Shown here: positions 3,271-45,460 of the stretch, piece by piece
How the letters are laid out: each line of letters begins with the position of its first letter
Numbering within the stretch: the first letter of the stretch is position 1
Assembly: GCA_951406725.2 (NCBI GenBank)
Contig: OX597815.1
Coordinates: 159,712,001 to 159,776,000 of the forward strand
Direction of reading: 5' to 3'
Source of the DNA: Octopus vulgaris
Lineage: Eukaryota
Length of the DNA: 64,000 bases
The notes under the pieces: generated by a model
What the model saw: the letters and a program-made list of their open reading frames with translations, nothing else
Database searches by the model: none
What the model was told of the DNA's origin: nothing
Translations under genes and position numbers: made by a program

Positions 3271-3525
3271 ATCATCATCATCATCATCATCATCATCATC
3301 GTTTAACGTCCGTTTTCCGCGCTAGCACGGGTTGGACGGTTTCGACCGGGGTCTGGGGAGCTCGGGACTGCCCCAGGCTCCAGTCTAGTCTGGCAGTGTT
3401 TCTACAGCTGGATGCCCTTCCTAACGCCAACCACTCCGCGAGTGTAGTGGGTGTTTTTTACGTGCCACCTGCACAGGTGCCAGAGGGGTCTGGCATCGGC
3501 CACGTTCGGATGGTGCTTTTTATGT
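3271..3525 (-). mobile_element. Family C SINE-like retroposon with (GAT)n tail
   Basis: Minus strand: ggtggcacgtaaaaaacacccactacactc..gtggttggcgttaggaagggcatccagctgtagaaac...ggacgttaaac(gat)n. At least 15 related copies or fragments occur in the window. Confidence 0.85.
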
Positions 3526-39821: not shown

Positions 39822-40375
39822 ATAAATGTCCTGATGCAAGCAGTGACTCTCATGGCTTCTGATCTTAGCTAACTGGAAGTGTTATGATGTACCTTGTTTT
39901 GTCTTGTTATAAAAGATGGGCTACAGCAAGTATTCTGCTCAATACCAAGATTTGCTTGTCAGTTGCTGACCTTAACCAGTTGAGCATGTCCTTTGGTGGT
40001 TGACAATATGTGCATCTCTAACCATGAGCAGAAGTAGTAGGGGAGCATCATAGCCATGTATTGAAAGGAATCCTTTGGGGTTTGGATAATTCACCTCTGG
40101 AAACATGGATATTTTGTTCATCATCCTTAAACAACCCTTATTTAGGGACCGTTTGTGCAAGATGGGCTATTTGACCTGAAGAAAATTCTGACTGGGATCC
40201 ACCTACAAGGTTATGCACTGTTTATCGTGATATGAGATCATTGTGTTGCACTCATATGGTTGTGATGCATGTGTCTGATGTACCCTTATCAGATGAGTGG
40301 TGATGATGGGTATATTGGGCATTGTATATTCATACCCCAGTGTCACTTTAATGGCATGCACTGCTCTCTCACTCA
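39822..40375 (+). mobile_element. Unclassified ~550-bp element bounded by (AAT)n on both sides
   Basis: Sharp boundaries at (aat)n runs and higher GC than the flanks. I recall it as an abundant octopus repeat, but there is only one copy in this window. Confidence 0.5.
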
Positions 40376-41872
40376 ATAATAATAATAATTGTAATAATGA
40401 TAATATAATTTATTGGATTTGTCCCAGTTTCTCTTCATTGAAAAATTGATGTTTGGGAAAAAGATTTTAAGTGAAGAATGGAGAATACTTGAAGCAGTAT
40501 CCATAAATATCTATTCTGCCAATTCAGATATTTGATTAAGCACAATCAGTTATTTTATTTTTCTCATATATAAAATCAAAAATTATTATTTTAAATTTGT
40601 TTGATTATGATTTGTGTATCTATCAAATTAGCCAAAGAGTTTTGTTTGATAAACTTCACAAGTTATAAGATATTTTTTCTGATACAGATCTATCTTTTTA
40701 GATACTTCATTAATTTATGAGATAAGCTATCATAATAATCATCACCACTATCATTGCTATCATTATCATCACCATCATCGTCATGATCATCACCATCATC
40801 GTCATGATCATCACTGTTATAGTGTTCCACTGTCTAAAAATATTTTCAATCATGGCTGTGTGGCTACAAAGCTTGCTTTGCAGCCATGTGATCTGGTAAT
40901 TAAGTTCCACTGCGTGGTACTTTTGGACAAATGTCTTTTATTAAGGCCTTAGGCTGACCAAGGCCTTATCAGTAAATTTGGTTGACAAAAATTCTGTAGA
41001 AGTCCTTCATGTATATGTGTATGTGTGATTTTGTGTGTGGCTATTAACCTCCGGGCTAATCAAAGCCTTGTGAGTGGTTTGGCTAGATGGAACCTTAAAG
41101 AAGCCTATTATATATGTGTGTGTTTGTTTGGTTGGTATTAGGAAGGGCATCCAGCCATTGAAACCTAACCAAATCTGACTGAAACTTGGTGCTGCTCTTC
41201 TGCTTGCCAGCTCTAGTCAAACCATCCAACCCATGCCAACATGGAAAACAAATATTTTTTGATGGAGATGATAATGATGATGATGGCCTATAACTATGTA
41301 TGTATCATTATATTTGTATTTGTCCCCTGCTACTGCTTGACAACCTGTGTTGGGTTGCTTATGTCCCCATAATTAGCAGTTTAGCAAAAGAGACTGATAG
41401 AATAAGTACCGAACTTAGAAACATGTACTGGAGTCAATTTATTTGACAAAACCTTTCAAAGTGGGGCCACAAAAGGGCTGCCATCCAATAACTGTAACAA
41501 GTAAAAGATAAAAATTTAATAAATAATCATTTTAGATATATTCTTAAGCCTTATGAAACACATTGCTATGTATTGTATATAATAATTCCTTAAATCATAT
41601 TCAGTTATTTATCAGCTGCAGTTGTTCAGTACATGGGGAGATCCTTACTATGTAGGATTAAATGGAATTGAATTATATGATGCGGAATTCTACAAGATAC
41701 CACTTGATGAAAGCCGTAAGTACCTTTTCCATTGGTGTTTTTTTTTTACACTTCTTATTTTTGATGTTATTTAATCCTAGTTCATCCTTGATATATAAGA
41801 TTAATACCATTCCAGTCATGACAACAGCATACTGTTGCATTTGTGAGTGTGTGTGTATACAACATGGAAGAG

Positions 41873-41971
41873 AACACTACCGAAAATATACCCTATAGTA
41901 TTAAATCTAAGAAATTCCCTCCAAAGATCAAAGGTCTGGAAGACTTTGAAGCAGACCTACTGAAGCTTAGG
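41873..41971 (+). pseudogene. Penelope-like element ORF fragment (pre-RT region)
   Basis: NTTENIPYSIKSKKFPPKIKGLEDFEADLLKL resembles the YGFKSxxxPPxxxxLxxFExDL motif of invertebrate PLEs (from recall); directly upstream of a hammerhead motif. Confidence 0.65.
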
Positions 41972-41991
41972 GCATTTTTCCCGATGTCCGT

Positions 41992-42050
41992 ATAACTGAA
42001 GAGATGGTGGCGTGGATTCCCACCTCAGCATCCGAAACTCGGAGTTTTAT
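41992..42050 (+). ncRNA. Minimal type I hammerhead ribozyme with canonical core
   Basis: ATAA-CTGAAGA-GATG..GTGG attc CCAC..CATC(C)-GAAA-CTC G GAG-TT-TTAT. Helix I ATAA/TTAT, helix III ACTC/GAGT, predicted cleavage after GUU at 42046. Confidence 0.78.
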
Positions 42051-42288
42051 CATGGCTATCAAATAATTGTCACATATTACATTTACAGATAAATTCCTCT
42101 ATTTACATAATATCGAGGTCTCTTTCATTCTTTTGTTATCTTACCATTTTTATCAATATATATATATGTATATATGTGTGTATATATGTATATGTATATA
42201 TATGTATATATGTATGTATATATATGTATGTGTATATATATATATGTATATATATATGTGTATATATATATGTGTATATATGTGTATA

Positions 42289-42327
<39 letters not shown>

Positions 42328-42355
42328 ATATATATGTATATATATATATATATGT

Positions 42356-42788
42356 ATCATCATCATCATCATCATCATTTAGCGTCCGCTTTCCATGCTA
42401 GCATGGGTTGGACAGTTCAACTGGGGTCTGTGAAGCTGGAAGGCTTCATCAGGCCCAGTCAGATCTGGCAGTGTTTCTACGGCTGGATGCCCTTCGTAAC
42501 GCCAACCACTCCGTGAGTGTAGTGGGTGCTTTTTACGTGCCACCCGCACAGGTGCCAGACAGAGCTGGCAAACGGCCACGAACGGATGTATATATGTATA
42601 TCATCATCATCATCATCATCATCGTTTAACGTCCGTTCTCCATGCTAGCATGGGTTGGACGGTTCGACCGAGGTTCTGGGAAGCCAGAAGGCTGCACCAG
42701 GCTCCAGTCTAATCTGGCAATGTTTCTACAGCTGGATGCCCTTCCTAACGCCAACCACTCCGTGAGTGTAGTGGGTGCTTTTTACGTG

Positions 42789-42790
<2 letters not shown>
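42356..42790 (-). mobile_element. Two tandem family C retroposons
   Basis: Each has (cat)n-gtttaacgtcc/tttagcgtcc...gggtgctttttacgtgc. Confidence 0.88.
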
Positions 42791-42840
<50 letters not shown>

Positions 42841-42895
42841 ATATGTATATATATATGTGTGTATGTATATTTATATATATATTTGACAAAAAAAA

Positions 42896-43045
42896 GCCAC
42901 TAAGTTTGCTAGCCACTTGTAGAGTTTGAAAGCCAGCTCCTCACCAAAGACAATCAAGTGAAGAATCATAGAGAAATCTGTGCTATATGTTGATGAATCG
43001 GAGAAATACAAAGTATGCATAGCTGAAAGATTACATATTCTAAGA
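42896..43045 (+). pseudogene. Penelope-like element GIY-YIG C-terminal fragment
   Basis: ATKFASHL*SLKASSSPKTIK*RIIEKSVLYVDESEKYKVCIAERLHIL matches the TxLSxxIWxLK..IKWxII..PY..CxLCxxEKxxIL pattern; both stops fall at Trp positions. Confidence 0.72.
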
Positions 43046-44166
43046 ATTGCCCGAAATACTGTTTTCCAGATCTGGAATTTTCAGCAAATGCAAACATATG
43101 GACAAATTTCTTTTGATGAACTGGAGGACACCACCTTCTCTAGATTGAACTGCTGTCTTGCAGATTTTGGACCCCTCTCCATTTGACTCCTCTCTGTTGA
43201 ATTATTCTTCAACAACTAGCTTAATTATAGCTTTATGATCAAAGTATATAGGCACAGGCATATATAGTATATATATATGCACGTGTATGTATTGCATGTG
43301 TGTATATTTAGTAGGTCCAAAACTTCGAAGTCTCTTTCAGGAACATTCTTGTAAAGGAATAATAAATTTGTACTCTAATATATTTTATATTATGTTATGG
43401 TTGCATAACAGATTAATGTAAAACTATTTTCATTATAACTGAACATAAGAAACAAACATTAATATCATATCTATCTATCTATCTATCTATTTAATACACA
43501 CACACACATGCACACACACACACACACACACACCACTTCTGTTTAAAATCCTGAAGAGATTCGTGCTCTCACTGACAAGACCATCATGAAACTACCTATT
43601 CAAATTGACAAGAATGATTCAAATTTGATGCTTTGAAAATTGAATTTCTTTTAACTTGGTCTTAGGCTGTTGTTGTTAGGTGTTAGGTGATTGCATCAAT
43701 GTCAGTGTATTCAGTTTATTTCCTGGAAATTACATTACCTTCAAATGAGAGAACCTTTAGGTGGTCACTTGACCTGCTAAAAACTACAGCTAAATTTCTT
43801 TGAGAATAAATTCTTGACTCTTGAAATTATCCCTTCTGATAATCTGATCTTTTGCTCTTTTCTGTAATATTAGTACATGTGTGCGTAACACATAGTTATT
43901 ACATGTGTTTGTATTCTAATACTTTGCAATAAATTGACATACTAGAATGTCTACCAGCTGATGTATGTCATTTTTGTATCCTCTCCATTTTCTTATTTGC
44001 CGTATGAATTAAGGGTAAACCACTTTTGACCCCCACCCATATATAACACTTAACCGTGAGATTGCCGAGCAATAACCAGTACTTGGGTATGAATAAATGG
44101 GCACACTCCGAGCAGTATATTGGATAGGTACTATCCCTTAGTTGGTTGATTTCCTATCTCACACAG

Positions 44167-44213
<47 letters not shown>

Positions 44214-44214
<1 letters not shown>

Positions 44215-44365
44215 CATCGTTTAACGTCTGTTTTCCATGCTAGCACGGGTTGGACGGTTCGACCGGGGTCTGGGAAGCCAGGAGGCTGCACCAGGCTCCT
44301 GTCTGATCTGGCAGTGTTTCTACAGCTGGATGCCCTTCCTAACACCAACCACTCTGTGAATGCAG
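44214..44365 (-). mobile_element. Family C retroposon, partial
   Basis: catcgtttaacgtctgttttccatgctagc...cccttcctaacaccaaccactc. Confidence 0.85.
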
Positions 44366-44368
44366 TTA

Positions 44369-44401
<33 letters not shown>

Positions 44402-44789
44402 ATCTTCCAACCCATGCCAACATAAACAACAGCTGCTAAATGATGAGGATATATATTCTTATGCATATTTCCTTTGTGTGTGTGTGTATACATCCACATT
44501 GACACGCATGTACTTACAGAAACTGATAAAGAAAACATGTGGAAGAGGAATTTTGAGTTAGAAGAGATATCACTTTAAGAAGTAATAAAAATTTTATATA
44601 TTTGAAATCTGAAAGCTTGATTAAAAAAAAAAAAAACGAAAAAAAAGAAGTCGAAAGGGATTTTAACTTGATGTGATACAGTATAGCAAGCAGTGATGTT
44701 TTTGTTAAATGATAGAAATATTCCACATATATCATGGGAAATGGAAAAGTTAATGATTGGTAGCAAGTAAATTGATTTTCCGAAATTGA

Positions 44790-45460
44790 TTTCAAAAGGA
44801 GATTAGTGTCAATTTAATCCATCCAGATAACTTTCCAAGGTGGGAGTGATCGAATAGAAAATTCTCCATTCAAGGAAATAACATAGGCCATGGCAACATC
44901 AAATCAGAGAGTGAAAGAATCAGCCTGTTATAAATCTTGGATTTTGGTGTATAACTGTATTGATACCATTTGACAAATTGATGCAGCTAGTAATTGCAAT
45001 ACTGAACTGTTTGTCTCCTGTGTCTGTATTAGAACAGTGTGTGTGAGGAACATGATATAAAATGTAACTGATTACAAAGTGTTTCTGATTCAAATTATGT
45101 GTTTTCACCTCCTCATGGATTGTTATCCAGTTCTTGCGATAGATGTCAGTTAGTTATCCATCTTGAGTTATGGACTGCATCATTCGCTGATGAGTTGTAC
45201 AAAGAAAATTTAATCTCTCTTTCACCCTGAATCAGAATTAAAGTTCAAAGAGAAACCATTGACAGAATGTTGGAATTACTAGGACCCCCCAATCAGGTTT
45301 TCATGGAAATAGATTCTAGAAGAAACTTTGAGTTAAGGGTTTACAAAAATACATGAATCTATCTACTGATATCTCTGGAAAGAATAGTTCAATTTGGCAT
45401 GGAACTATGTTTAAAGATCCATGGCAGAAGCTATGTAAAGAACCATGGTGGAAAATAAAG
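44790..45460 (-). pseudogene. Highly decayed Penelope-like element C-terminal half
   Basis: SYILYHVPHTHCSNTDTGD resembles the GIY-YIG VVYxIPCxxCxxxYIGE motif; upstream VNGFS resembles NGYP; downstream LFLEW. Confidence 0.45.

Follow-up and report, generated by a model that had tools for sequence, protein, structure and literature searches.

A hammerhead ribozyme motif in an intron of Octopus vulgaris lies on a partial Hydra-clade Penelope-like insertion and is probably an inert relic

The hammerhead motif found in the window (the whole 64-kb stretch of Octopus vulgaris DNA analyzed here) is best explained as the ribozyme of the pseudo-LTR (pLTR) in a family of Hydra-clade Penelope-like elements (PLEs), carried on a 300-nt partial insertion in a host intron and likely to be an inert relic that is decaying neutrally (probability about 0.88). 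The copy belongs to this family, has an insertion with definite limits on the sense strand of a host intron, carries two changes in stem I, and has no partner copy in that intron. A single copy of this kind has little weight, since the clade is published and decayed hammerheads are found in many of its pLTRs. Its family as a whole is a useful natural record for the open question of the purpose of the PLE hammerhead.

The hammerhead is of type I, with core elements CUGANGA, GAAA, and UH placed around three helices and with the structure open at helix I. Along with the extended stem I of the family, it is located at 41982–42061 on the + strand, with core positions at 41996–42002, 42034–42037, and 42045–42046. 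An earlier note had described the core (CUGAAGA, GAAA, and GUU, at 41992–42050) as complete, and all of its bases are confirmed in the letters, with CTGAAGA at 41996–42002 and GAAA at 42034–42037. The helices are also present as described there. Helix I pairs ATAA (41992–41995) with TTAT (42047–42050), the long helix II region is 31 nt in length (42003–42033), and helix III is ACTC-G-GAGT (42037–42045) with a 1-nt loop. H17 is T42046, and cleavage is predicted after U42046, at the same site as proposed before.

A type I descriptor, drawn up after the motif had been seen, identified this as the single site on both strands of the 64 kb and returned no hammerheads from 200 dinucleotide shuffles, which argues that the motif is not due to chance. 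The Rfam Hammerhead_1 search proposed in the earlier note aligned at the site (41990–42053 of a 141-nt window piece), but with a score of 13.7 bits (E = 1.3), short of the gathering threshold of 34. An Rfam scan of 40000–45000 returned no hammerhead, its matches being microsatellite-driven miRNA ones and chance ones, and the unmutated sister copy L013 gave no Hammerhead_1 match. The Hammerhead_1 model has a short helix II. Support for the motif comes from the descriptor and from the family, and not from Rfam.

Comparison of positions 41865–42125 (261 nt) with the animal's own 2.8-Gb genome yielded 1493 first-look candidates, a figure that is not a copy number. The best 40 of these 1493 candidates were scored and gave 54 matches, 81–97% identical, the window itself aside. 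Where copies extend past the pLTR, a short 5' UTR comes next and then an ORF. Among 16 longer stretches, seven contain two direct pLTR copies that enclose about 2.9 kb, and these near-full-length copies (L091, L092, L094, and L097–L100) are all interrupted by stops or frameshifts. Their translations contain RWK and DKT motifs, a reverse transcriptase (RT) with Y-x-DD, a C-x-C-x5-C linker, and, at the C-terminus, a GIY-YIG endonuclease followed by CxxC and CxH; in L092, L098, and L099, these cysteine motifs read CSCRNKKLC, CGLC, and CPH. The CCHH-type cysteine pair is absent from the GIY-YIG core of the translated copies. The Pfam GIY-YIG match to the family ORF is weak (E = 0.007) and below the cut-off. 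In full copies, including L091, the 3' UTR is about 750 nt in length, is rich in simple GT/AT sequence, and contains a repeat that is about 50 nt long or longer. Seven loci (L044, L047, L048, L049, L053, L056, and L060) form a subfamily with a U4C change in the core and an A in loop III; they share other diagnostic letters and include four of the seven near-full-length copies.

These motifs place the family, which is dispersed, in the Hydra clade, as the near-full-length copies carry the features that define this clade in the available part of PMC8557442 (RWK, DKT, CxCX5C, and GIY-YIG at the C-terminus without CCHH). The family has a single short ORF (element of about 3 kb or less) with the GIY-YIG at its C-terminus, an N-terminal RWK, and DKG changed to DKT. 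Its linker is CxCX5C, CCHH is lacking, and CxxC and CxH occur around the conserved E and N. A canonical hammerhead is located near the 3' end, and insertion is preferentially into (TA)n. The earlier note was right in recognizing a minimal type I hammerhead of a PLE pLTR with a palindromic helix III, and the pLTR family is now identified. Its assignment to the Naiad-like group was wrong, because the family has a C-terminal endonuclease along with a canonical hammerhead, whereas Naiads, in the part of PMC8557442 consulted, have an N-terminal endonuclease and no canonical hammerhead. The Naiad clade (N-terminal GIY-YIG, CxC, DKA, no canonical hammerhead) was accordingly rejected, with RWK and DKT likewise being at odds with it. 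A non-LTR retrozyme was also rejected. Such elements, in the available part of 10.64898/2026.07.22.740005, consist of tandemly repeated units that do not code for protein and that each carry a hammerhead; the motif occurs once in the window, and its family is tied to an RT-endonuclease ORF. On motif evidence, the family is new, whereas its clade is published and its ribozyme is the one usual for that clade, and the window contains a decayed partial copy of it. In the open-access literature, Penelope-like, octopus, and hammerhead were found together only in PMC8557442.

The insertion that carries the hammerhead is limited to 41858–42157 (300 nt), in which an ORF-start piece of 112 nt adjoins a pLTR piece of 186 nt. 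The ORF-start fragment (41858–41969, + strand; nt 229–341 from the pLTR end) is preceded by a (GT)n tract and is 79–88% identical in nucleotide sequence to the seven near-full-length copies; the peptide it encodes is 76% identical over 37 amino acids to the ORF start of the family. At the joint are two G nucleotides (41970–41971, + strand) that come from neither piece and are possibly cap-derived. The pLTR copy with the hammerhead follows (41972–42157, + strand; −74 to +111 relative to the cut site) and ends at the main 3' end of the family in a (TA)n-type microsatellite (42156–42357), (TA)n being the preferred target of Hydra elements (PMC8557442, available part).

A further PLE-derived piece is located downstream at 42883–43250 on the + strand and corresponds to the broken C-terminus and 3' flank of an endonuclease from a second, older family of Hydra type. 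The earlier note had described PLE-like peptides on both sides of the hammerhead on the same strand. Both are indeed derived from PLEs and lie on the + strand, but they come from two families and not from one element. Pfam found no domain in either short peptide. The downstream peptide begins about 725 nt past the pLTR, after two microsatellites and two copies of another repeat, and is related to the endonuclease end of the hammerhead family at only 30% over 53 amino acids and 50% over 22 amino acids. It was present in none of the 30 loci from the first family search, the window aside. The downstream piece (from about 42883) is a separate, older insertion outside that of the hammerhead, because it has no blastn match to the seven near-full-length copies and its own relatives are more diverged, being only 70–77% identical as compared to 97–100% for the 3' part of the pLTR. 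The type I descriptor found no intact hammerheads at 29 loci of the downstream family. The endonuclease end of yet another Hydra-type family occurs at L032:2884–3115 (− strand); it is 69% identical to the downstream piece of the window and has no match to full copies of the hammerhead family. This genome thus contains several Hydra families side by side. The window also has 12 matches (70–100%) to an abundant SINE-like repeat of ~185 nt, found after (CAT)n/(TA)n tracts, with copies at 42376–42560 and 42625–42789 and ten more at 3302, 9496, 12438, 19990, 28412, 41129, 44220, 47988, 59345, and 59643; some copies continue into 62–66-nt tandem units.

The hammerhead resides within a host gene, which we take to be KATNIP/KIAA0556-like. 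A host exon of this DUF4457 gene (Pfam PF14652, E = 2e-12) is located at 41605–41715 on the + strand, and three RNA-like runs each have one contig covering exactly these positions. The flanking letters of the contig from run X11 match an upstream exon at about 37368 and a downstream exon at 88895, in numbering continued past the window. The ribozyme-bearing intron thus extends from 41716 to 88894 in the same numbering, ending about 24.9 kb past the window and spanning 47 kb, and transcripts spliced across it exist among the RNA-like contigs. The hammerhead lies 331 nt into this intron on the sense strand, the orientation that the earlier note had required for it to cut a host pre-mRNA. RNA ends and levels are not readable from these data, which are contigs. 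Family RNA is abundant in the RNA-like runs, with contig depth over the ribozyme pooling many copies and not being assignable to the window copy. In run X19, which has a different organism label, a contig (41400–41921) extends over the exon and into the insertion as far as its 64th nt, differing little from the window; the insertion may predate the split from that organism.

In the window copy, stem I has lost two of its pairs through G-to-T changes at 41987 and 41991. These positions are G in 74 and 78, respectively, of the 84 copies that span the motif, and T in two copies each. The family stem I consists of five pairs, a bulge, six pairs, a mismatch, and two pairs, and 93% of cells are paired over the whole family structure. 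Four proximal stem I pairs (A-U) remain in the window copy, and its core, helix II, and helix III are intact. The predicted hammerhead-shaped fold has an energy of −10.3 kcal/mol for the window copy versus −25.0 kcal/mol for an unmutated copy, with stem I pair probabilities of 0.41–0.62 and 0 versus 0.65–0.99. In the minimum-energy fold of both copies, CUGA of the core pairs with the helix III strand instead, as is expected when a 1-nt loop does not allow closure within a monomer. The cofold energy of helix III, which is self-complementary and so suits a dimer, is −11.5 kcal/mol. No partner copy occurs inside the 47-kb intron. Across 144 kb, the family is otherwise represented by a single inverted pair (L142, 115211–115422 in continued numbering), which is located 73 kb downstream and beyond the next exon.

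The earlier note had proposed a check of conservation and covariation across the family. The core is kept in 52 of the 84 copies (the core and helix III in 49, and these along with the five proximal stem I pairs in 41), but covariation among 56 distinct copies does not rise above that in shuffles, 173 to 314 of 500 of which reach the observed values. Absence of covariation would be expected of copies that decay once inserted. A minimal PLE hammerhead showed no cleavage as a monomer and low cleavage as a dimer (PMC4209133, available part), a review concurs on dimers (PMC6765202, available part), and the ribozyme of an Anolis PLE cut only with protein (PMC11167929, available part). The window copy is most likely an inert relic that would be unable to cut on its own, since two pairs are missing from its stem I, the intron offers it no partner, and comparable minimal hammerheads failed as monomers. 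The suggestion in the earlier note that it is possibly still competent for cleavage is unlikely on these grounds, with an intact core being common in the family. It may nevertheless cleave slowly, or in trans together with sister transcripts, which are abundant, given the intact core and helices II and III and the four A-U pairs left.

Under an alternative explanation, the window copy would be an active ribozyme, exapted to tune the gene by cutting its pre-mRNA at a point 331 nt inside the intron. Its location on the sense strand of an expressed gene, its fully intact core, its self-complementary helix III (with the −11.5 kcal/mol cofold), and the abundance of family RNA as a source of trans partners all agree with this, as does the preservation of helix II through a double change from C-G to U-A. 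The double change, however, amounts to two CpG transitions, and an intact core is the norm (52/84). The two rare breaks in stem I, the lack of a partner in the intron, and the failure of minimal PLE hammerheads to cleave as monomers (PMC4209133, available part) argue against activity. Spliced transcripts also exist, and splicing was not blocked by intronic hammerhead cleavage in work cited by the available part of PMC2995048, according to which such cleavage need not block splicing. We consider an exapted, active ribozyme to be very unlikely.

Two other explanations concern the origin of the insertion. Units of ORF start plus pLTR could constitute a retrozyme-like mini-element that is non-autonomous and owes its spread to a single deleted ancestor, and at least 13 other loci do have an ORF-start piece joined directly to the pLTR, seven of them at ORF nt 323–339, although six of these seven were first found by a query containing the joint of the window. 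The joint sequences all differ, the ORF ends are spread over nt 220–447, two loci end at nt 335–336 in a microsatellite without a pLTR, and no tandem arrays of the unit were seen, making a spreading mini-element highly improbable. The region 41858–43250 could instead be a single Naiad-group PLE, rearranged or with an internal deletion, that has a canonical hammerhead as an exception for its clade. The three pieces are closely spaced on the same strand, and some Naiads have stemless hammerhead cores (PMC8557442, available part). However, full copies have a C-terminal endonuclease along with RWK and DKT, the downstream piece comes from another family, and the pLTR ends at the normal 3' end of its family in (TA)n; a single Naiad element is therefore the least probable of these explanations.

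Insertion scars across the family bear on how such copies may arise. Among 145 pLTR matches, 75 reach +111, 22 stop at +48, and 15 stop at +67, typically in (TA)n; +111 is the end of the reference, and about 19 of those 75 run on into the next unit. Two internal priming sites per (TA)n break would lead to inverted-pair arms that almost never have the same 3' end, and of 50 inverted-pair rows (46 loci), 41 combine a long and a short end, one combines two long ends, none combines two short ends, and eight are of other types. At the 5' side, 28 copies were chosen solely by sequence 3' of the cut. The cut site is spanned by 24 of these; 13 of the 28 start between −88 and −48, and four reach beyond −90. 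None of the 28 starts at the cut site, the nearest being at −6 and +5, and two of the remaining 117 pLTR matches have their starts at 0 and −1, respectively.

From L1 work, an additional G where a full-length copy begins at its 5' end is known as the mark of a copied cap. An extra untemplated G precedes 26 of 47 junctions at −95 to −70 versus 15 of 68 elsewhere (Fisher p = 0.0004), in a test that employed a majority-matching reference and anchored alignment, with repeated loci dropped. The −95 to −70 interval was picked after the data were seen, and the result weakens with wider intervals (p = 0.006–0.018). With one junction per locus, the counts are 20/38 versus 6/36; in the unbiased subset, the narrow interval gives p = 0.04 and the wide interval p = 0.18; and with a reference that differs at the junction region, the counts are 17/47 versus 11/63 (p = 0.03). 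The term "non-templated G" was not found by a weak search of the open-access Penelope and pLTR literature.

The ORF positions nt 334–341 are a possible fourth RT start site. ORF-start pieces end there at 5 of 29 loci in one set and at 0 of 9 new loci. L033 and L054 end at nt 335–336 directly in a microsatellite with no pLTR, and L005, L010, and L021 also end within nt 334–336, where they adjoin a pLTR. In the predicted fold of copy L032, the site at ORF nt ~335 is on the 3' arm of a hairpin (ORF nt ~312–340), and no long-range pairing of the 5' end with this site is present. An origin of the ORF-pLTR joints at splice junctions (GTAAGT in the ORF and TTTTCATAG before the ribozyme) was rejected, as the joints fall elsewhere.

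These observations suggest how the window copy may have formed. The RT of the element would have been primed at a cut (TA)n target and would have started internally on element RNA at +111, copying through the uncleaved ribozyme. Copying would have reached the likely capped 5' end of the RNA at −74, leaving the extra G, after which the RT would have switched to another internal start, at ORF nt ~341, to copy a further 112 nt. In an active element, the ribozyme would function as a dimer through its palindromic helix III, with the help of an element protein, or both; it would cut about 75–90 nt from the transcript start, with DNA copying being independent of the cut. The scars fit what is described in the available part of PMC11167929, in which the RT of a lizard (Anolis) PLE initiates internally at two sites on a template of unprocessed RNA. 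Both point to internal RT starts, a tail at one end, an uncleaved template, and a ribozyme cut that may not be needed.

A wider proposal, which we advance as tentative and doubtful in its entirety, is that the family scars map the transposition cycle. Transcription would start 74–91 nt upstream of the cut, and capped, uncleaved RNA would be copied, with the untemplated G as its trace. At a (TA)n break, one RNP would prime each of the two ends from a different internal site, a further start at the ORF hairpin would produce ORF-pLTR chimeras, and the U4C subfamily would have spread. The hammerhead in this proposal would be a protein-gated decapping brake near the 5' end and not a step in making the template. 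The scars agree with the sole in vitro study on internal RT starts and an uncleaved template, and they add a likely start site just upstream of the ribozyme, unequal 3' ends of inverted-pair arms, and a subfamily with a changed core that spread.

Several known systems resemble the window family; the comparisons that follow pertain to the available parts of the papers named. Like the Naiad clade (PMC8557442), the family is Penelope-like, targets (TA)n, and is found in cephalopods, but it is the opposite of this clade with respect to the N-terminal endonuclease, the CxC and DKA motifs, and the lack of a canonical hammerhead. Minimal PLE hammerheads (PMC4209133) similarly have a long helix II, a short proximal helix I, and a palindromic helix III, and they occur mostly as dispersed single copies, with pairs on opposite strands 100–700 bp apart. 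Unlike these, the window family has a 4-bp helix III, where theirs has none, and has its odd nucleotide on the 3' side of helix II. With the Poseidon element PAc of Anolis (PMC11167929), the family shares RT start sites that are internal, fixed, and downstream of the ribozyme, as well as a tail at one end only, an unprocessed RNA template, and AT-rich targets. The family differs from PAc in having three start sites before the ORF (+48, +67, and +111) and a possible fourth inside it, and in having a ribozyme entirely upstream of the start codon; the evidence for PAc is in vitro, whereas that for the window family is genomic only.

The closest counterparts are Hydra elements, which have already been published with the same type of ribozyme, including an octopus member, Hydra-1_Obim (PMC8557442). 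Hydra-1_Obim is a different family (64 of the first 120 residues identical to copy L092, by a by-eye count). In the window family, helix II is longer, with 11 pairs and two mismatches, GAAA is preceded by an additional C, the extended stem I comprises 13 pairs, and the 3' UTR is longer, at about 750 nt. The family also has clear pLTRs and inverted pairs, which were not seen for Hydra-1_Obim in the same source. Helix III is ACTC/GAGT in the window family and ACCA/TGGT in Hydra-1_Obim, with compensatory differences at two pairs, and the two have in common the GUU site and the 11 nt beginning at C3, CTGAAGAGATG. In the published table of Hydra hammerheads (supplement of PMC8557442), most have a 1-nt loop III and many have U17. 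Helix III of Hydra-2_Amil (PMC8557442), ACTC-G-GAGT, is identical to that of the window family.
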